NCBI GenBank assembly: GCA_934090595.1
Contig: CAKOJO010000001.1
Coordinates: forward strand, 1-55,665
Direction: 5' to 3'
DNA length: 55,665 nt
From: an uncultured Bacilli bacterium
GTDB lineage: Bacteria > Bacillota_I > Bacilli_A > RF39 > UBA660
This document shows, piece after piece, positions 2,108 to 49,536 of this stretch. The position numbers were made by a program, and so were the translations under genes. The notes under the pieces were generated by a model. That model worked only from the letters and a program-made list of their open reading frames with translations. It was not told where the DNA came from and searched no databases. Numbering within the stretch: position 1 is the first letter of the stretch; each line of letters starts with the position of its first letter.

Positions 2108-2411
2108 TTCTTGCACCTCCAAACTTATTCGCTATTATTATAAGAAAAAAATAGGGTAGTTGTCAATGTTTTTTTTGAAATTAACAGTTTCAACGTTAAT
2201 TAACAGTTAATAATTGTTGCATTGTTAATTTGTTAATAAAAAAATTGTTGAAATTTGTTGAAAATTAATTTATTATATATAAACAAAGGAAATCGTATGT
2301 TAATAAGTCTGTTAATAACTTGTTAATAACTTTTTTACTATTTTATTTTTTAACAATTTGTATTACAATGTAATTAGTTGCAAATACTTTATGATGGGGA
2401 GAGTGGTTTCG
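2108..2411. promoter_or_regulatory. oriC left half: DnaA-box-like cluster upstream of dnaA (also holds the rpmH and dnaA promoters)
   Basis: TGTTAATAA (reverse complement TTATTAACA) occurs at 2231, 2298, 2310 and 2321. The last three are head-to-tail at 11-12 bp spacing. Several degenerate copies are present (ATTAACAG x2, TTGTTGAAA x2). Position is rpmH/dnaA intergenic. Confidence 0.7.
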
Positions 2412-3782: not shown

Positions 3783-3933
3783 TGATGTTAGTAGATGTTA
3801 ATAAGTTAATGATTTATTAACATAATGAAATTAGTTTAAACTGTTTATAGATAAGGAAATTGATGACTTATTAACAATATTAACAGTAATAATATAAATA
3901 ATAAATATATTAAAAAGAAAGAAGGAATGAAAT
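3783..3933. promoter_or_regulatory. oriC right half: DnaA-box-like sites plus an AT-rich candidate unwinding element
   Basis: TGTTAATAA at 3796. TTATTAACA at 3814 and 3868, with ATATTAACA at 3877. These are followed by pure A/T sequence with TAA/TAT triplets (3886-3920) before the dnaN RBS. Confidence 0.6.
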
Positions 3934-5129: not shown

Positions 5130-5196
5130 TCTCTGTATGATAGGGTATTGATCAATATATTTTTATATATTAATTTTTGTGTGTGGGGGTGATATT

Positions 5197-5652
5197 ATGG
5201 ATTATGATATTAATAGAGATACAGTAATGATTATTCCAATAAATGATAAGAAATCTAGAGTTATTGAAACTAATAGTGATTATATAGTTGATGATAATGC
5301 TTATTCTATTATGGAACGTAGTTGTTTGTATTTTGGAAGTTCATATGAAGGAAGACTTATGAGTTCAAAAAGTATTTTGGGTAGTGTTTATAAGGCTCCA
5401 ATAGTAATTGAAGAAAGTAGAAGTATTATATTTTTTCCTGTAAAATCTTCTGTTGTGAAACAAAATATTTGGATTTCTTTGAATAATTTAGTTAGTTATA
5501 ATAAACATGATAAAAAAACTATTATAACTTTTAAAAGGGACAAACAAATTTTATTGGATATTCCTTATTTTTCTATTGATAGTCAGGTTCTTAGATCTAC
5601 TTTATTGGAATCTGTTATTCGTAGAAGAAAAAATGAAGAAAAAAACGATTAA
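5197..5652 (+). CDS. comK: ComK-family transcription factor
   Basis: ORF 5179..5652. Preferred start is ATG 5197 after a GGGGGTGA RBS. The core ERSCLYFGSSYEGR...KAPIVIEES..IIFFPVKS...WIS aligns by eye with B. subtilis ComK (DRSCRFFGSSYAGR...KPPIMVDPS..IFLFPTLS...WIS). Confidence 0.8.
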   Translation: MDYDINRDTVMIIPINDKKSRVIETNSDYIVDDNAYSIMERSCLYFGSSYEGRLMSSKSILGSVYKAPIVIEESRSIIFFPVKSSVVKQNIWISLNNLVSYNKHDKKTIITFKRDKQILLDIPYFSIDSQVLRSTLLESVIRRRKNEEKND

Positions 5653-8801: not shown

Positions 8802-11378
8802 ATGGATAATAAAGATAATATGGAAAATGTTGAAAAATCTACTTTAAATAGTTCTGAGACCTTTGATGAAGAACTTGAAAAAGTAGAGGTTGATGTTGAT
8901 AAGTTTAATGGATATTTTCATGAAAGAGATAGTTTGGCTGAAAATAATATAGTTGATGAAGTTAAAACTTCTTTCTTGGAATATTCAATGAGTGTAATTA
9001 CGTCTCGTGCTTTACCTGATTTAAGAGATGGTCTTAAACCTGTTCATAGACGTATTTTATGGAGTATGTTTAATTCTGGTTATACTCCAGATAAACCGCA
9101 TAGAAAGAGTGCAAAAACTGTTGGTGAAGTAATGGGTAATTATCATCCACATGGTGATAGTTCTATTTATGAAGCTATGGTAAGAATGGCTCAAGATTTC
9201 AATCAACGTTATTTATTAATTGATGGTCATGGTAATTTTGGTAATATTGAAGGCGATGGGGCTGCTGCAATGCGTTATACTGAATCTCGTTTATCTAAAT
9301 TATCGCTTGAACTTCTTAGTGATATTAGAAAAAATACTGTTGATATGACTAAAAACTTTGATGAAACTCTTGACGAGCCTGTTGTTTTACCTAGTAGATT
9401 TCCTAATATTTTAGTTAATGGAACTATGGGTATTGCTGTTGGTATGGCGACTAATATACCACCACATAATTTAGGCGAAGTAATTGATGGATGTGTTGCT
9501 TATATCGATAACCCTGATATTGACACTTTAGGATTGATGCAATATATAAAGGGTCCAGATTTTCCAACTGGAGGAATTATTCTTGGTAATTCAGGTATTA
9601 TGAGAGCTTATCAAACTGGTAAGGGTACAATTACTATTAGAAGTAAGGCTGAAATAGTTGAAAATGGTAATCATTCTAGTATAGTCGTTACTGAAGTTCC
9701 ATATGGTGTTAATACTATGGATTTAAAGAATAGAGTAGCTGAACTTGTTAGGGATAAGGTTATTGATGGTATTTCTGATTATCATACTGATTTGAAGAAT
9801 GGTGTTAAGATTACTATTACTTTAAAGAGAGATGCTAATCCTCAAGTTGTGCTTAATAATTTATATAAACATACTAATTTTCAAATTAGTTATGGTATAA
9901 CTTTATTGATGATTGATGGAAAAACTCCTAGAACGTTAGGATTAAAGGATATTATATCTAAATATATTGATCATCAAATGGAAGTTATTGTAAGAAGAAC
10001 TAGATTTGATTTGGAAAAAGATGAAAAACGTGTTCATATATTAGAAGGATATAAAATTGCACAAGATAATATTGATGAAGTTATTAAGATCATTAAAGCT
10101 GCTAAGAGTGATGTTGAGGCAAAAGAAAAATTAATGGCTAGATTTGGTCTTACTGATGTACAAACTGATGCTATTTTAGAATTAAAATTACGTCGTTTAA
10201 CTGGATTGGAACGTGAAAAGATTGAAGCTGAGTTGCAAGCGTTATTACTTGAAATCGAAGAATTAAAATCTATTTTGGCTAGTAATGAAAAGGTTCTTGC
10301 AATTATTAAGAAGGAAATGTTAGAAATTAAGGCTAGATTTGCAGATGAAAGAAGAACTTCAATTGATATGACTGCTATTGATTATATTGAGGATGAATCT
10401 TTAATACCTGTTGAAAACATTATGATTTCTCTTACAGAAAAAGGTTATATCAAAAGATTGTTAACAAGTACATATAGATCACAAAATCGTGGTGGTGTTG
10501 GTATTAAGGGTATGTCTACTAATGAAGAGGATTTTGTTAATAAGTTAGTTACTTGTTCTACTCATGATCATATATTATTCTTTACTAATTTCGGTAAGGT
10601 ATATAGAATAAAGGGTTATGAAATACCTGAATCTAGTAGACAATCTAAGGGATTACCTATTGTTAATTTATTGCCTTTGGAAAAGGGTGAAGTTGTTAAT
10701 TCAATTATTCCAATTAATCCTAATGATGTTGATGATAGTAAAAGCTTGATATTCTTTACTATGGGTGGTCTTGTTAAGAGAACTCCTATAAGTGAATTTG
10801 AATCTATTAGAAAGAATGGTAAAATTGCTATTACTCTTAAGGAAGATGATGAATTAATTAGTGTTAAAATGACATCTGGTAGTGATGAAGTTATTATGGC
10901 TTCTAATAGTGGAAGAATGGTACGTTTTGTGGAAACTGAGGTCCGTATGATGGGTCGTAGTGCTTCTGGTGTTAAGGGTATTGATTTAACTGATTCTAAG
11001 GTGATTGGAGCTGAAATTGTAAACCCTAATGAGTATATTTTGGTTGTAACTGAAAAAGGTTATGGTAAGAAAACTGATGTTAGTGAATATAGACTTACTC
11101 ATCGTGGTAGTAAGGGTGTTAAGGCATTAAATATTACTGATAAAAATGGTTTAATTATTGCGTTTAAATCTGTTGTTGGGGATGAGGATTTGATTATTAC
11201 AACTAATAATGGTATTGTTATTAGACTTGATGTTTCTAAGATCTCTACTTTAAAAAGAAATACTCAAGGTGTTAGATTAATGAGTCTTAAAGATGGTCAA
11301 GTTGTTACATCAGTTACTGTAACAGAAAAAATTGAAGAAGATTTGGGAAAGGATGAATCTAATGAAAATGATGCTTAG
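8802..11378 (+). CDS. gyrA: DNA gyrase subunit A
   Basis: 858-aa ORF with an active-site region (AAMRYTE) and a QRDR-like [17 protein letters not shown] segment. C-terminal beta-pinwheel repeats. Confidence 0.97.
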
Positions 11379-11391: not shown

Positions 11392-11469
11392 ACACAAAAA
11401 ATAAACAAATGTTTGTTAATGTGTTATTTCTATAATTTTTACAAATTGTTAATAAGTGTTAATTTTTAA

Positions 11470-11485
11470 TGTTTCACGTGAAACT
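11470..11485. promoter_or_regulatory. parS-like site 1 (15/16 match)
   Basis: TGTTTCACGTGAAACT is one terminal mismatch from the symmetric parS 16-mer. TGTTAATAA lies 23 bp upstream. Confidence 0.75.
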
Positions 11486-11646
11486 ATGTATAGGTTTTGT
11501 ATTACAATAATAAAATTTTGTTAGTATCAATTATTTACAATGAATGTTAATTAATTTAAAATTTTAATTTTTTTGTATTTTTAATTTTAGTATTTAAAAT
11601 GTTATTATTTTAAAACATTAAAATTGTTAATAACTTATTTTTTTAA

Positions 11647-11662
11647 TGTTTCACGTGAAACA
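11647..11662. promoter_or_regulatory. parS site 2 (perfect)
   Basis: TGTTTCACGTGAAACA, inside the 24-bp palindrome 11643-11666. It abuts a TTGACT -35-like hexamer upstream of the SRP RNA. Confidence 0.85.
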
Positions 11663-11700
11663 TTAATTGACTATTTTTCTGTTTTATTATAATATATATT

Positions 11701-11772
11701 TGTGCAACGCATATGGTTGAATTAGGTCAGGATCGGAAGATAGCAGCCTTAAGATCCTCTATGCGTGTGCAC
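11701..11772 (+). ncRNA. ffs: Small (4.5S-type) signal recognition particle RNA
   Basis: Contains GGTCAGGATCGGAAGATAGCAGCC, the conserved SRP domain IV motif with a GGAA tetraloop. The 5' GTGCAACGCATA pairs with the 3' TATGCGTGTGCAC. T8 follows, and a TTGACT / TATAAT-like promoter lies upstream. It overlaps the spurious N-terminus of ORF 11713..12231. Confidence 0.85.
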
Positions 11773-11790
11773 TTTTTTTTGGAGGTTTTT

Positions 11791-12231
11791 ATGTTGTTAA
11801 ATGATGATAAATATTACTTTGATTTAGCTATAAAGGAAGCAAGAAAAGCATCAAAAACAAATAATGTTCCAGTTGGTTGCATTATTGTTTTTAAAAATAA
11901 AGTAATTGCTAAAGCATATAATAAAAAGAATAATAAAAATATCTCAATATATCATGCTGAAATTTTAGCTATTATTAAAGCTTGTAAGTATTTAAAAACA
12001 TTTATTTTAGAAGAATGTACTATGTATGTTACTTTGGAACCTTGTGAAATGTGTATGAATGCTATTGCTGAATCTCGTATTAGAAATATTAAATATTTGA
12101 TTTCTTCCAAGTATGAAAATAATTTAAAGAGTAACTACGATCGTATTAATTGCAGAAAATATGACGATAACGAATTTGCAAATAAATATAAAAATATATT
12201 GTCAGAATTTTTTAGTAATATAAGAAGTTAA
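11791..12231 (+). CDS. tadA: tRNA-specific adenosine deaminase
   Basis: Start ATG 11791 after GGAGG (MLLNDDKYYFDLAIKEA). Zinc deaminase motifs HAEILAI and TLEPCEMC. Adjacent to ffs and dnaX, as in Bacillus. Confidence 0.9.
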   Translation: MLLNDDKYYFDLAIKEARKASKTNNVPVGCIIVFKNKVIAKAYNKKNNKNISIYHAEILAIIKACKYLKTFILEECTMYVTLEPCEMCMNAIAESRIRNIKYLISSKYENNLKSNYDRINCRKYDDNEFANKYKNILSEFFSNIRS

Positions 12232-12234
12232 CAA

Positions 12235-12250
12235 TGTTTCACGTGAAACA
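12235..12250. promoter_or_regulatory. parS site 3 (perfect)
   Basis: TGTTTCACGTGAAACA at the centre of the perfect 32-bp palindrome 12227-12258. The palindrome overlaps the tadA stop codon and is followed by a T-rich run. Confidence 0.85.
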
Positions 12251-12298
12251 TTGTTAACTGTTTTTATTTAATTAAATTTAAGCAGTAGTATCTTTCTA

Positions 12299-12314
12299 TG
12301 TTTCACGTGAAACA
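12299..12314. promoter_or_regulatory. parS site 4 (perfect)
   Basis: TGTTTCACGTGAAACA at the centre of the perfect 36-bp palindrome 12289-12324. Confidence 0.85.
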
Positions 12315-12448
12315 TAGAAAGATATTAACATTTTTTTTGTTAATATTATGCTATTTATGCTTATATTGCAAAATATATTTGTATAATAATGTAATTATAA
12401 ATATAGTTAATAATTTTATTTTTATTACTTAATTTGTTATTGAGTTAA

Positions 12449-12464
12449 TGTTTCACGTGAAACA
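12449..12464. promoter_or_regulatory. parS site 5 (perfect)
   Basis: TGTTTCACGTGAAACA at the centre of the 40-bp palindrome 12437-12476. One T/G mispair would be a wobble pair in RNA. Confidence 0.85.
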
Positions 12465-12581
12465 TTGACTCAATAAATATTTTAATATCACAAAAATAAG
12501 TGTTTAATTGTTATAATTATTTCGTATTTTTATTTCTATATTCTGAAAAATACATTTTAATACAAAAAAATGTTTGTAAAT

Positions 12582-12597
12582 TATTTCCCGGGAAATA
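12582..12597. promoter_or_regulatory. Noc-binding-site-like palindrome 1
   Basis: TATTTCCCGGGAAATA contains the 14-bp NBS consensus ATTTCCCGGGAAAT perfectly. It extends to the 24-bp palindrome 12578-12601. Its centre is 61 bp from the centre of parS 6. Confidence 0.7.
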
Positions 12598-12642
12598 ATT
12601 TTGAATTATATATATTAAATTGTTAATAAATGTATTTTTCAA

Positions 12643-12658
12643 TGTTTCACGTGAAACA
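12643..12658. promoter_or_regulatory. parS site 6 (perfect)
   Basis: TGTTTCACGTGAAACA at the centre of the perfect 36-bp palindrome 12633-12668. TGTTAATAA lies 22 bp upstream. Confidence 0.85.
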
Positions 12659-12788
12659 TTGAAAAATATTGATACTTGTTTATGTTAATTTATTTATTTT
12701 AAATATACAATATTTTTAATGGATGATTTATTTATTCTTTATTTTTTTGGTTTAGTAATTGTTTTTGATTTTATTTGATCTAATCTTA

Positions 12789-12804
12789 TGTTTCACGTGA
12801 AACA
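12789..12804. promoter_or_regulatory. parS site 7 (perfect)
   Basis: TGTTTCACGTGAAACA; the palindrome extends only to 18 bp. Confidence 0.85.
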
Positions 12805-12908
12805 TTGTTATTTTTTTTATAAAAGTAATAATGTTTATGTTTAAATTTTATTTTTAATATATTATGTTCTTAAAAATGTGTTGTGAATACAAAAACTGGC
12901 TTGCAAAT

Positions 12909-12924
12909 TATTTCCCGGGAAATA
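12909..12924. promoter_or_regulatory. Noc-binding-site-like palindrome 2
   Basis: TATTTCCCGGGAAATA within the 24-bp palindrome 12905-12928. Its centre is 61 bp from the centre of parS 8. Confidence 0.7.
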
Positions 12925-12969
12925 ATTTTAAATTATGTATATTAAATTGTTGATAAGTATTTTTTTTAA

Positions 12970-12985
12970 TGTTTCACGTGAAACA
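12970..12985. promoter_or_regulatory. parS site 8 (perfect)
   Basis: TGTTTCACGTGAAACA at the centre of the 32-bp palindrome 12962-12993. TGTTGATAA lies 22 bp upstream. Confidence 0.85.
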
Positions 12986-13092
12986 TTAAAAAAGTTATTT
13001 TATACAATTGTCATATCATAGACTTTATTAATCTAATTTGGTACAATATTTATAGTATTTTTTTTGGGGGTGATATTATTGCTTATTTAGCT

Positions 13093-14703
13093 TTGTATAG
13101 AAAATATAGACCAACTTGTTTTGATGAGGTTGCTGGTCAAGATTCTATTGTAAAGATACTTAAAAATTCTATTGCTAATGATTGTGTTTCTCATGCTTAT
13201 TTGTTTGCTGGTCCAAGAGGAACTGGAAAAACGAGTTTGGCAAAAATTATTGCAAAAACTATTAATTGTTTTAATTTGAATGGATCTACATTTTGCAATG
13301 AATGTGATAGTTGTATTGCTTTTAATAACAAAAATAATCCTGATATTATTGAAATAGATGCTGCTTCGAATAATGGTGTTGAGGAAATTAGAAAAATTAG
13401 AGATAGTGTTAATTTAATGCCGAGTATTTCAAAGTATAAAGTTTATATTATTGATGAAGTGCATATGTTATCGAGTGGAGCTTTTAATGCATTGTTGAAA
13501 ACTCTTGAGGAACCACCAACTCACGTTATTTTTATATTGGCAACTACAGAATTTTATAAAATTCCAGAAACTATTATTTCTAGATGTCAATGTTTTAGTT
13601 TTGAACGTATTTCAAATAACGATATTGTAAATAAACTGAAGTATATTGTGGATTGTGAAAAAATAAATATTGATGATGAAGTTTTGAATTTGATTGCAAA
13701 ATATAGTGATGGTGGTTTAAGGGATTCGATTAGTATGTTGGATAAATTGATTTCTTATTCTGACAAAATTACTGTTGATGATTATTATACTTTAAAAGGT
13801 ATTGTTAATGAGGAATATTTAAAATCTTTAACAAATTATATTTTTAATGGTGATGTCTCTAGTATTTTGAATCTCTTAACTGAATTGGAAAATTCGGGTA
13901 AAGATGTTGTTATTTTATTAGATAGTTTTATGGAATATCTTAAGTCTTGTTTAATCTTACATAATAGTAGTGATTTCAATTCTATTTATAGTTTAATTAT
14001 TGAATTGAATGAGTTAGATATATTGCTGAAAAGAAGTAGTAATAAAAAAATTATTTTTGAGGTTGGAATTATTAAAATTGTTAATAAATTATTTAATAAT
14101 AAAACAAATGTTTGTGATTTTCAAGACATTAATAATTTGTCTACTTTAGAAAAAGAAGTTGTTTCTAGTAATAAGAATGATGATGTTCCTAAAAATGTAG
14201 TTGAAACTTATAAAGTGTGTTATAATAAAGATATCAGGATTAATAATGCTTTTGCTTTAGCTGATAAAAGTCTTTTGAATGATTTGAAAATTAAATGGGT
14301 TTTATTTTCTGAAGTTGTTTCTAATCCTGAAGATTCTTTGTTTATTTCTTATTTACTTGATAGTACTTTACGAGTTGCTGGTAAACATGAATTGATTTTA
14401 TCAGTTAAATATGATTCTATTCTTAAGAATGTTGATAACAATATTTCTGATATTGAATCAGTATTTAATACTATTATGAACACTAACTATAAACTTACAT
14501 TTATTAATGATTCTGATTGGGATAAATTAAAAAATGAATACATAAAAAATATTCAAAATGGGAGTGCTTATAGTTATATTAATGAGGAAAATGTTAATAA
14601 TGATATTAATATTTCTTCGAGTGAGAATGTTTCTTTTAATAATAATGATAGTGATGTTTTGGCTACTTCATTATTTGGCGAAGATATTGTTGAATTGAAA
14701 TAG
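13093..14703 (+). CDS. dnaX: DNA polymerase III subunit tau (clamp loader)
   Basis: Walker A GPRGTGKTS, a zinc-module cysteines region (CNECDSC), and SRC motif ISRCQ. The ORF track starts at TTG 13093. In-frame ATT at 13078 would give MAYLALYRKYRP (canonical N-terminus) at good spacing from the GGGGGTGA RBS, so the true start may be 13078. Confidence 0.92.
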   Translation: MYRKYRPTCFDEVAGQDSIVKILKNSIANDCVSHAYLFAGPRGTGKTSLAKIIAKTINCFNLNGSTFCNECDSCIAFNNKNNPDIIEIDAASNNGVEEIRKIRDSVNLMPSISKYKVYIIDEVHMLSSGAFNALLKTLEEPPTHVIFILATTEFYKIPETIISRCQCFSFERISNNDIVNKLKYIVDCEKINIDDEVLNLIAKYSDGGLRDSISMLDKLISYSDKITVDDYYTLKGIVNEEYLKSLTNYIFNGDVSSILNLLTELENSGKDVVILLDSFMEYLKSCLILHNSSDFNSIYSLIIELNELDILLKRSSNKKIIFEVGIIKIVNKLFNNKTNVCDFQDINNLSTLEKEVVSSNKNDDVPKNVVETYKVCYNKDIRINNAFALADKSLLNDLKIKWVLFSEVVSNPEDSLFISYLLDSTLRVAGKHELILSVKYDSILKNVDNNISDIESVFNTIMNTNYKLTFINDSDWDKLKNEYIKNIQNGSAYSYINEENVNNDINISSSENVSFNNNDSDVLATSLFGEDIVELK

Positions 14704-31302: not shown

Positions 31303-32097
31303 ATGCTTTTTAATGTTGGTGATTTAGTTACTAGAAAATCACATAATAATGATACTGTATTTAAAATTGTTAGTATTTCTAATGATGTAGTTATTTTAAA
31401 GGGTCTTAATGTGAGATTAATGGCTGATGCTAATGTTTCAGATTTAGTTCATTGTGATAATTGTGAGAATGATCTGATTTTAGATGATGATAAATTGACT
31501 GATCGAATGATTTCTTTTTCTGAGTTGGATAGGGATGAGTACTTTTATTTGCCAGGTAAGATTTTACATATTGATGCCGATGATGATTATTTAAAACGAT
31601 GTATGAATTTATATAAAAGACTTAATATATTGTCATATGGAGTAGTAGTAAATGAAAGAGATATGCCTAACCAAATTCTTGAACATTTGAATGAAACCAA
31701 TCCTGATATACTTGTTATTACTGGTCATGATGCTTATTATGATAAAAATGATATTGATATTTCAAGTAATTCTAATTATAAAAATAGTATTAATTTTATT
31801 AAAACTGTTATTAATGCTAGAAAGTATGAAAATGATCATGAAAAACTTATTATAATAGCTGGTGCTTGTCAATCAAATTATGAGGAATTAATTAGAGCAG
31901 GAGCTAATTTTGCTAGTAGTCCAAAGAGAATAAATATACATGCACTTGATCCTGCAATTATTGCAAGTAGTGTAAGTTTATCAAATAAAAATAAACCTAT
32001 AGATTTACTTGAAATTTTACAAAAAACTAAATATGGTACAGATGGCATAGGTGGTATTATAACTAATGGTACTATGTATGTGGGGTATCCTAGATGA
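31303..32097 (+). CDS. yabG: Sporulation-specific peptidase YabG
   Basis: Motifs VGDLVTRKS..., PGKILHIDAD.DYL, ILVITGHDAY, and AGACQSNYEELIRAGANFASSPKRINIHALDP match B. subtilis YabG almost motif for motif. Confidence 0.9.
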   Translation: MLFNVGDLVTRKSHNNDTVFKIVSISNDVVILKGLNVRLMADANVSDLVHCDNCENDLILDDDKLTDRMISFSELDRDEYFYLPGKILHIDADDDYLKRCMNLYKRLNILSYGVVVNERDMPNQILEHLNETNPDILVITGHDAYYDKNDIDISSNSNYKNSINFIKTVINARKYENDHEKLIIIAGACQSNYEELIRAGANFASSPKRINIHALDPAIIASSVSLSNKNKPIDLLEILQKTKYGTDGIGGIITNGTMYVGYPR

Positions 32098-32711: not shown

Positions 32712-32736
32712 ACACACCTTTTGGTGTGTTTTTTTC
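32712..32736 (+). terminator. Intrinsic terminator after spoVG
   Basis: ACACACC-TTTT-GGTGTGT hairpin plus T7. Confidence 0.85.
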
Positions 32737-32779
32737 ATATTTTTTAATTTTTTTCATATTATTTATTAGGAGGAATAGT

Positions 32780-33061
32780 ATGAAAGATAATATAAGTTAT
32801 AGTCATAGTATCAATATTAATGAAAGAAATGGTATTTATATTACTGGAGTTTTAAAGATTGATAGTTTTGATGATGAAGAATTTTTGCTTGAAACTAATA
32901 TGGGATATTTAGCTATTAAGGGAGAAAATCTTGAACTTATAAGGTTAGATACTAAGGATGGTATAGTATCTATCAAGGGTTTGATAATTAGTATGAGTTA
33001 TATAGAAGATTTAAAAAAGTCAAATAAGCAGTCTTCGTTTTTTGAAAAAGTTTTTAAATGA
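32780..33061 (+). CDS. yabP: Sporulation protein YabP
   Basis: ORF 32726..33061; ATG 32780 after AGGAGG. ITGVLKIDSFDDEEFLLETNMGYLAIKGENL...DGIVSIKG parallels B. subtilis YabP. Confidence 0.9.
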   Translation: MKDNISYSHSININERNGIYITGVLKIDSFDDEEFLLETNMGYLAIKGENLELIRLDTKDGIVSIKGLIISMSYIEDLKKSNKQSSFFEKVFK

Positions 33062-49206: not shown

Positions 49207-49536
49207 TTAGATTACTTTGTAGTTTATTTCTTCATCAAATACAATGAAATCAACGTATATTGATAGAAGTAAATACCATTTGCCAGTTTTTGGATCACTT
49301 ATTACAACATGATCTCTTGCTGCTTGTTCTACGACTCCGGTGAATATTCTATCTCTATATTCATTTGAATCTGGAAAAGTCATATAGATGCTTGCAACTT
49401 TTCCTTTATTTAATCTTAAGATGTTTTCTACATAAGATTGTTCCATTGGAAGATCTTCACTTATTCCTGTTGGAATTGTGTTTAGATTTTGATTTGGGTT
49501 GGTATTAAAACCAGGATTATAATAACTATTATTCAT
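49207..49536 (-). CDS. gerQ: Spore coat protein GerQ
   Basis: EQSYVENILRLNKGKVASIYMTF....EYRDRIFTGVVEQAARDHVVISDPKTGKWYLLLSIYVDFIVFDEEINY follows the GerQ/YwdL family pattern, with an Asn/Pro/Gln-rich N-terminus. Confidence 0.78.
   Translation of the reverse strand: MNNSYYNPGFNTNPNQNLNTIPTGISEDLPMEQSYVENILRLNKGKVASIYMTFPDSNEYRDRIFTGVVEQAARDHVVISDPKTGKWYLLLSIYVDFIVFDEEINYKVI

Follow-up and report, generated by a model that had tools for sequence, protein, structure and literature searches.

The ParB family supplies the textbook pair for a DNA-binding protein that was duplicated and gained a new specificity and a new job: ParB (Spo0J) and Noc. In Bacillus subtilis, about ten parS sites with the consensus TGTTNCACGTGAAACA are spread over hundreds of kilobases and lie mostly within genes, and about 70 Noc-binding sites (NBS) are scattered over 4.2 Mb but avoid the terminus. 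The two kinds of site differ at positions 1 and 6 of the half-site, and the residues at ParB positions 173, 179, 184 and 201 set the specificity for parS or NBS (Jalal 2020). Noc nucleates on a 16-bp NBS, and without the ten residues of its membrane-targeting sequence it does not bind liposomes (Jalal 2021); the membrane helix was present in all Noc homologues examined and was needed for function (Adams 2015). Clusters of parS are also known, with 1 to 23 sites according to a review of the field, and those of Caulobacter, Myxococcus, Corynebacterium, Streptomyces and Listeria innocua hold several to ~20 sites near oriC, all of a single type. Here we describe an array of parS sites interleaved with NBS between gyrA and dnaX, beside the replication origin, in a 55,665-base stretch of the genome of an uncultured Bacilli bacterium (contig CAKOJO010000001.1; hereafter the window). 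The Noc of this lineage has no membrane helix. The locus is probably a composite origin-proximal centromere on which two clamps dependent on cytidine triphosphate (CTP), Spo0J and Noc, would be loaded.

An initial annotation of the window had regarded so dense a cluster of parS as unusual. Clustering as such is already known, and the new element is the presence of NBS in the same structure together with a Noc without a membrane anchor. We found no report in the open-access literature of parS interleaved with the sites of a second ParB-family protein, nor any there of parS/NBS arrays of this kind or of a Noc that lacks its membrane helix.

Interleaved parS and NBS sites between gyrA and dnaX

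A scan of the whole window found TGTTTCACGTGAAACA perfectly at seven places and TGTTTCACGTGAAACT, a parS site with one mismatch, at an eighth (Table 1), in each case where the initial annotation had put it. The window holds no further match at up to two mismatches (0.01 expected), and none of 100 shuffles of the window reached eight sites. Of the eight, two fall between gyrA and ffs and the other six in the 861 bp between tadA and dnaX, where the open reading frames are trivial (41-44 aa), so the annotated picture of consensus, non-coding, origin-proximal sites, 9.1-10.6 kb from the dnaA start, was confirmed. The five other CACGTG hexamers of the window (15242, 20279, 20699, 35771 and 36479) all lack the parS arms, as had been remarked, and the claim that the 16-mer is no generic genome word also agrees with its absence from 1.24 Mb of related sequence described below. 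The identity of the parS sites is secure, and a centromere function of the locus is very likely. The sites resemble those of B. subtilis in matching the same 16-bp consensus and in lying close to the origin, and differ in that all those detected in the sampled origin region fall within one 1-2 kb non-coding interval that they share with interleaved NBS.

Two perfect matches to a second 16-mer, TATTTCCCGGGAAATA, lie in the tadA-dnaX spacer. This is the consensus NBS (Jalal 2020), and it is identical to the site of B. subtilis and Staphylococcus aureus. Both copies had been missed by the initial annotation. Each lies within the 24-bp palindrome AAATTATTTCCCGGGAAATAATTT, and both belong to a 108-nt module in which an NBS is followed by AAATTGTTAATAA and then by parS. 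With P for parS and N for NBS, the order of sites in the window is PPPPPNPPNP. The array had been called tandem, which is not strictly so in the window: TRF found no site-bearing tandem repeat there, and the only repeat of this kind is the 108-nt module, present in two copies 327 nt apart. Apart from ffs, the array had no match in Rfam.

The array was compared across relatives collected by a DnaA-based scan, with one genome per species, ~21 kb per genome and sites counted at up to one mismatch in 80 loci plus the window. The gene order is the same in all 80: spo0J-soj-noc...dnaA-dnaN-comK-recF-gyrB-gyrA-[array]-tadA-[array]-dnaX. The gyrA-dnaX intervals (57.8 kb) contain 185 parS and 132 NBS, compared to 0 parS and 19 NBS in all other sequence (1.24 Mb). 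parS was found in 29/29 complete intervals, and parS together with NBS in 27/29. One of these intervals (L011) has no near-perfect parS but carries five copies of the symmetric variant TGTTCCACGTGGAACA, and is therefore counted among the 29. The eight parS of the window are near the top of the range per complete interval; only L064 has more, with ten. Selection acts on the array, given that parS occurs in all complete intervals and nowhere in the remaining 1.24 Mb. The density of NBS is ~130-fold higher in this single 1-2 kb locus, and NBS are part of the same selected structure as parS. High information content is confined to AATGTTTCACGTGAAACATT and AAATTATTTCCCGGGAAATAATTT, with ~0 bits in the flanks, and the commonest parS variant of the clade is a change at position 5, the same as in the B. 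subtilis consensus. A comparison of the window with L002, a contig of the same species, shows the sites perfectly kept but the intervening DNA diverged, with indels; the L002 array has one more NBS unit. A k-mer screen with parS and NBS masked revealed no third motif common to all arrays, giving only ffs and A/T runs. The same distribution was seen in an enlarged set of 183 loci, with 583 parS and 400 NBS in the arrays (92.7 kb) and 0 parS and 43 NBS in the other 1.86 Mb; the metagenome loci in this set were picked for having arrays, so only its counts outside the arrays are unbiased.

parS and NBS usually alternate within the arrays. Mixed parS/NBS pairs make up 194 of 261 adjacent site pairs, compared to 135 +/- 7 after permutation (0/10,000 permutations reached 194), and NBS-NBS neighbours (n = 12) are fewer than parS-parS neighbours (n = 54). 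Sites lie in tandem repeats at 50/183 loci, in which units of one parS and one NBS have periods of 61, 67, 72, 76, 95, 102-108, 119-128, 148, 172, 196, 227 and 235 bp. These many different periods show that two-site units were amplified independently several times. One example, L064, is a head-to-tail array of 10.7 x 125 bp with the site order NPNPNPNPNPNPNPNPNPNPN. It recalls sopC of plasmid F, which has 12 x 43-bp repeats, in its head-to-tail arrangement with a ParB-family palindrome in each unit, and differs in being chromosomal and in having two specificities per unit; the window's own array is no regular tandem repeat. A scan of metagenome contigs by pattern only (NBS-N{25,55}-parS) gave 102 stretches with a GC content of 22-33%. 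The array adjoined gyrA, tadA or dnaX in 101 of them, and the last was a 1.9-kb fragment without a gene match. The composite array is therefore specific to one locus and one lineage.

The initial annotation had read the array as a loading platform for ParB-CTP clamps and SMC. The parS sites and the presence of Spo0J and Soj support the ParB side of this, but the array is not pure, as it is interleaved with NBS and, in this species, with DnaA-box-like motifs, so that the reading covers only part of the locus. One could still argue that it serves for ParB-CTP and SMC loading only, with the NBS and the DnaA-box-like motifs as incidental passengers, since parS outnumbers NBS by 8:2 in the window and the arrays of some relatives have few NBS or none (seven parS and one NBS in L012, three parS and no NBS in L039). 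We consider this unlikely. NBS recur in nearly all complete intervals, almost always as perfect 16-mers (135/147), and are conserved over 24 bp next to unconserved flanks. Their CCCGGG is retained though composition strongly disfavours it in a 27% GC genome, and every locus long enough to include the noc region encodes a Noc paralogue whose specificity residues match.

NBS were also observed at two other kinds of position. Some lie within the dnaX coding sequence, ~1 kb in, in a variable linker (L005:12119, L011:21010, L035:20785, L042:20767, L039:20672 and 20717, L055:21304, L074:20807 and 10 metagenome loci). They are perfect or near-perfect, sometimes duplicated, and encode the in-frame peptide IIS(R/Q)EI; CGG is a rare codon in a genome of ~25% GC, and its use here suggests that selection acts on the DNA. 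The window's own dnaX has no NBS. In one subclade, single perfect NBS occur in the mnmG-trmE and trmE-jag spacers, 2.4-4 kb left of dnaA (L018:6114 and 7575; L019:6138; L021:6150; L025:2742 and 4181; L029:2102 and 3552; L034:5898; L038:6196; L079:7459), which places Noc sites across the origin as well.

Spo0J and Noc of the lineage

The contig of the window ends just left of jag. L002 is assigned to the same species because its DnaA is 97% identical to that of the window and the neighbouring proteins are 94-99% identical. It extends 10 kb further left with the order spo0J-soj-noc-rsmG-mnmG-trmE-(PIG-L)-jag-yidC-rnpA, so that soj and spo0J lie left of the origin, as the initial annotation had expected. 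spo0J and soj are present in all relatives reaching that region, and so is noc. The top match of L002 Spo0J is B. subtilis Spo0J (6SDK; 1e-70, compared to 1e-46 for Noc). It reads GKSRSHITNILGILNL...MGHAR, corresponding to R173 and G201, the parS type, and resembles the B. subtilis protein in these residues, in its GERRxR CTP motif and in the adjacent Soj. For L002 Noc, the top structure matches are 7NG0 and 7NFU (both 3e-64) and 7OL9 (2e-56), ahead of Spo0J 6SDK (9e-51), and its helix-turn-helix GKSQSTVANKLRLLNL...SERHAR yields Q173, K179, N184 and R201. The NBS-specific bases are read by Q173 and R201, and for the permissive role one lysine, at 179 or at 184, is enough (Jalal 2020). The GERRxR and ENLQR motifs are kept in both proteins. 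From these specificity residues we infer that the lineage has a cognate protein for each type of site.

The Noc of the clade shares with canonical Noc a syntenic gene, the residues Q173, K179 and R201, a CTP-binding N-terminal domain and a recognisable C-terminal dimerisation domain, and has a total length of ~365-520 aa. It differs at its N-terminus, in its linker and in having no lysine at 184, a position that is variable and mostly N, S or T. All 50 of the loci in which the 5' end is readable have in-frame stops just upstream, with the start ~13-20 residues before PNRFQPR, and the 120 closest database homologues, annotated by other pipelines, start 13-17 residues before it; overall, clade starts lie 13-23 aa before this motif. 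The alignment to Geobacillus Noc begins at about residue 26, so that both helix alpha1, which is the 10-aa membrane-targeting sequence, and helix alpha2 are missing. The clade protein thus has no N-terminal amphipathic membrane-targeting helix. In a search of 1.84 billion cluster representatives, the short N-terminus was found in 147 of the best 150 clusters at 50% identity (lengths 279-705 aa), and Q173 was present in 149 of these, K179 in 145, R201 in 148 and K184 in none. A search with the N-terminal half of Noc returned only close clade relatives and confirmed the start sites.

In place of the short canonical linker, clade Noc has 80-250 aa of disordered, low-complexity sequence rich in N, Q, E, P, S and T. 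Within a Noc subclade, the linker keeps the motifs GIDYSTPPKFIDY, NFKFF(S/T)P, FNNPFAxNPIF and STSTSMDxLLAGV (from L002:1595-2890 (-) and homologues P0001-P0270), which look like docking motifs for partners.

These features bear on whether the array could serve canonical nucleoid occlusion, in which NBS-loaded Noc would tether the origin to the membrane and block the Z-ring, as in B. subtilis and S. aureus. The synteny (rsmG-noc-soj-spo0J) and the Noc-type recognition residues are consistent with it, as are the cell-wall, DivIC and sporulation genes, which point to division by a septum. Such a role appears improbable for a protein whose targeting sequence and next helix are absent in every clade member as well as in nearly all of the best clusters, since B. 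subtilis Noc that lacks these ten residues has neither membrane binding nor function (Jalal 2021, Adams 2015). The gathering of NBS at the centromere is also unlike their scattered distribution in B. subtilis (Jalal 2020).

The proposed composite centromere

If this non-coding zone of 1.5 kb is a composite centromere, Spo0J dimers would nucleate on the parS sites, become closed CTP clamps and slide away from them; they would also interact with Soj and probably bring in SMC. The intervening NBS would be the nucleation points of Noc dimers, which would likewise close as CTP clamps. Without the membrane helix, clade Noc would probably not tether the DNA to the membrane; it would be a second centromere-bound clamp, with its long disordered linker as a separate interaction surface. 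Site-bound dimers of either protein may hinder the sliding of the other, which would concentrate both in a compact body ~10 kb from oriC. This roadblock idea is speculation, as is an involvement of SMC or DnaA. In this large group of uncultured gut Bacilli, across which the layout is kept, the role of Noc may thus lie at the centromere instead of in nucleoid occlusion. A broader proposal, which we put forward tentatively, is that Noc in this lineage is no nucleoid-occlusion factor but a second centromere CTP clamp, and that its NBS and parS evolve together as the two parts of a centromere satellite, to which DnaA boxes are added in some lineages. If this were true, segregation, origin organisation and perhaps the control of initiation would meet at a single locus.

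Several observations weigh against a composite centromere with two clamps. The genes for Spo0J, Soj and Noc are off the window's own contig, and their presence is deduced from L002. Clade Noc may bind the membrane through another part of the protein. It scores 297.6 bits on NCBIfam TIGR04285 (nucleoid_noc), just below the 315-bit cut-off; this is its best-scoring family, on which Spo0J scores 238.9 bits. The sampled flanks have 19-43 NBS beyond the arrays, so that the sites may be scattered too, as they are in B. subtilis. The 19 NBS in the 1.24 Mb outside the interval resemble the genome-wide density in that species, and Noc may therefore have a dual role. Alternation is in part explained by the duplication of a two-site unit in tandem, and it is modest when the regular arrays are removed (79 mixed pairs compared to 69 +/- 4.6). 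Finally, DnaA-box-like motifs are enriched in the arrays of the window's subclade only.

The interleaved sites and the anchorless, NBS-specific Noc bear on the role of a proto-Noc right after the duplication. The state seen here could be ancestral to a membrane-binding Noc with scattered NBS or could equally be a secondary reinvention. The architecture is common, being that of a very large family shared by the best 150 clusters. The composite array offers a natural system in which to ask whether two ParB-family clamps can share a loading zone, whether they corral each other and whether Noc can function independently of the membrane, and it bears on the question raised in the review of why parS sites cluster and what drives this.

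The canonical DnaA box TTATCCACA, at up to one mismatch, is not enriched anywhere in the window, and the search therefore turned to the variant TTATTAACA, equivalent to TGTTAATAA on the opposite strand. The window contains 23 copies compared to 4.1 expected, some near dnaA and others a fixed distance from parS (Table 1); the latter had likewise been missed by the initial annotation. In the window's subclade (DnaA at least 69% identical), the dnaA flanks have no canonical TT[AT]TCCACA and 0-7 copies of TTATTAACA (2-7 where the full flanks are covered), and DnaA reads GKNHATV. In the other subclade, the flanks have 1-14 canonical boxes and mostly 0-1, up to 4, copies of TTATTAACA, and DnaA reads GKDH(S/T)TV. 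L017 is intermediate, with GKNHTTV, three canonical boxes and three copies of TTATCAACA. The changed residues of DnaA domain IV, which align with the base-contacting D433 and T435 of Escherichia coli, accompany the switch of box. On this ground, TTATTAACA is read as the putative DnaA box of the window's subclade, with an apparent co-evolved switch of DnaA-box specificity. In this subclade the boxes are denser in the arrays than elsewhere (2.4/kb compared to 0.59/kb), with 28/28 on one strand, whereas most arrays of the other subclade are without them. The DnaA component is therefore lineage-specific and no defining part of the array.

The boxes could nevertheless mean that the array mainly titrates or positions DnaA, in the manner of the DnaA-box clusters of B. 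subtilis or datA of E. coli, with a coupling to ParB and Soj. The four boxes placed 22-23 nt from parS, the clusters of the same 9-mer around dnaA and the one-stranded enrichment in arrays would suit this. We nonetheless regard a primary role in replication control as very unlikely, as it would leave most arrays of the other subclade unexplained, there is no clade-wide third motif, and TTATTAACA is itself a presumed target of DnaA.

It is barely credible that the array is non-functional satellite DNA spread by slippage, or a set of RNA hairpins terminating transcription after gyrA and tadA. Many relatives' arrays are indeed tandem repeats, and five parS of the window species are the centres of perfect or near-perfect palindromes of 32-46 bp, some with T-runs, which a terminator scan reported as terminator-like (7 matches compared to 0.1 expected). 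Yet each core is an exact copy of one of two protein-binding consensus sequences and stays perfect while the flanks diverge, over DnaA identities of 43-100%; the arrays are at one locus only; and few sites of the clade have long palindromic extensions (18/170 sites compared to 2/510 controls). The extensions may be terminators, cruciforms or by-products of palindrome growth. A CRISPR-like or mobile-element origin was ruled out by the near-identical units, 'spacers' included, the single fixed locus and the lack of cas or transposase genes.

Gene neighbourhood and organism

The features of the array region and of the origin are collected in Table 1. The GC skew shifts from ~0 to +0.25-0.40 at ~2 kb, which places the origin between rnpA and dnaA and the array 9-11 kb into the right replichore.

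Table 1. Coordinates of origin, gene and array features in the window
Feature	Coordinates	Strand	Description
jag, yidC, rnpA	left end	-	gene calls
TTATTAACA cluster	2160..2340		four boxes upstream of dnaA; putative oriC part 1
dnaA	2358-3782		followed by dnaN, ComK-family gene, recF, gyrB
TTATTAACA boxes	3796-3876		three boxes between dnaA and dnaN
gyrA	8802-11378
DnaA-box-like TTATTAACA	11447..11455	-	23 nt (start to start) upstream of parS-1
parS-1	11470..11485	none	TGTTTCACGTGAAACT, terminal mismatch; gyrA-ffs spacer
DnaA-box-like TTATTAACA	11625..11633	-	22 nt upstream of parS-2
parS-2	11647..11662	none	perfect; gyrA-ffs spacer, 29 nt 5' of ffs
ffs	11691..11788	+	small signal recognition particle RNA; Rfam RF00169, 60.2 bits; inside array region
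tadA	11791..12231	+	tRNA adenosine deaminase; inside array region
parS-3	12235..12250	none	perfect; 4 nt past tadA stop; centres 34-bp palindrome 12226-12259, then T-run
parS-4	12299..12314	none	perfect; centres 42-bp palindrome 12286-12327
parS-5	12449..12464	none	perfect; centres near-perfect 40-bp palindrome 12437-12476
108-nt composite module, copy 1	12559..12666	+	NBS, DnaA-box-like motif, parS
NBS-1	12578..12601	none	16-bp TATTTCCCGGGAAATA at 12582-12597 within 24-bp palindrome AAATTATTTCCCGGGAAATAATTT
DnaA-box-like TTATTAACA	12621..12629	-	22 nt upstream of parS-6
parS-6	12643..12658	none	perfect; centres 36-bp palindrome 12633-12668
parS-7	12789..12804	none	perfect
108-nt composite module, copy 2	12886..12993	+	repeat family D4; 88% identical to copy 1
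NBS-2	12905..12928	none	16-bp TATTTCCCGGGAAATA at 12909-12924 within 24-bp palindrome AAATTATTTCCCGGGAAATAATTT
DnaA-box-like TTATCAACA	12948..12956	-	22 nt upstream of parS-8
parS-8	12970..12985	none	perfect; centres palindrome 12955-13000
dnaX	from ~13093		followed by ybaB, recR

Matches to sigma-70-like promoters are not enriched in the window (24 compared to 19.8 +/- 4.7), and an extended -10 element of dnaX likely lies near 13036-13047. The start of dnaX is ambiguous (13066-13095): a ribosome-binding-site-like GGGGGTGAT is followed by an in-frame ATT ATT and then by the TTG at 13093 that was listed as the start of the open reading frame. This stretch is also conserved in L002.

The window encodes SpoVT, YabG, YabP, GerQ, DivIC, sortases, a SpaA-type pilin and an M23/LysM peptidase; genes for sporulation (spoVT, yabG, yabP, gerQ) and for the cell wall and pilus lie at 21363-21893, 31303-32097, 32726-33061 and 49207-49536. 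From this gene set, the organism is walled and probably spore-forming, and it uses the standard genetic code. The records of its relatives are labelled uncultured Bacilli, Tenericutes or Mycoplasma sp., and one bears the name Candidatus Faecimonas gallistercoris, assigned by NCBI to Bacilli incertae sedis. Several related contigs were binned as Muribaculaceae, Methanobrevibacter or Acidaminococcus, evidently by mis-binning.

Three further features of the window were observed. A ComK-family protein (Pfam PF06338, 9e-34) is encoded at 5179-5652 (+), between dnaN and recF, and all related loci that cover this position have the gene there. Upstream of the methionyl-tRNA synthetase gene, a T-box leader (RF00230, 99.4 bits) occupies 21917-22105 (+). 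Between tatD and ksgA, at 24787-29533 (+), seven successive open reading frames on the same strand encode proteins of 164-256 aa without a Pfam match at E <= 1e-5.

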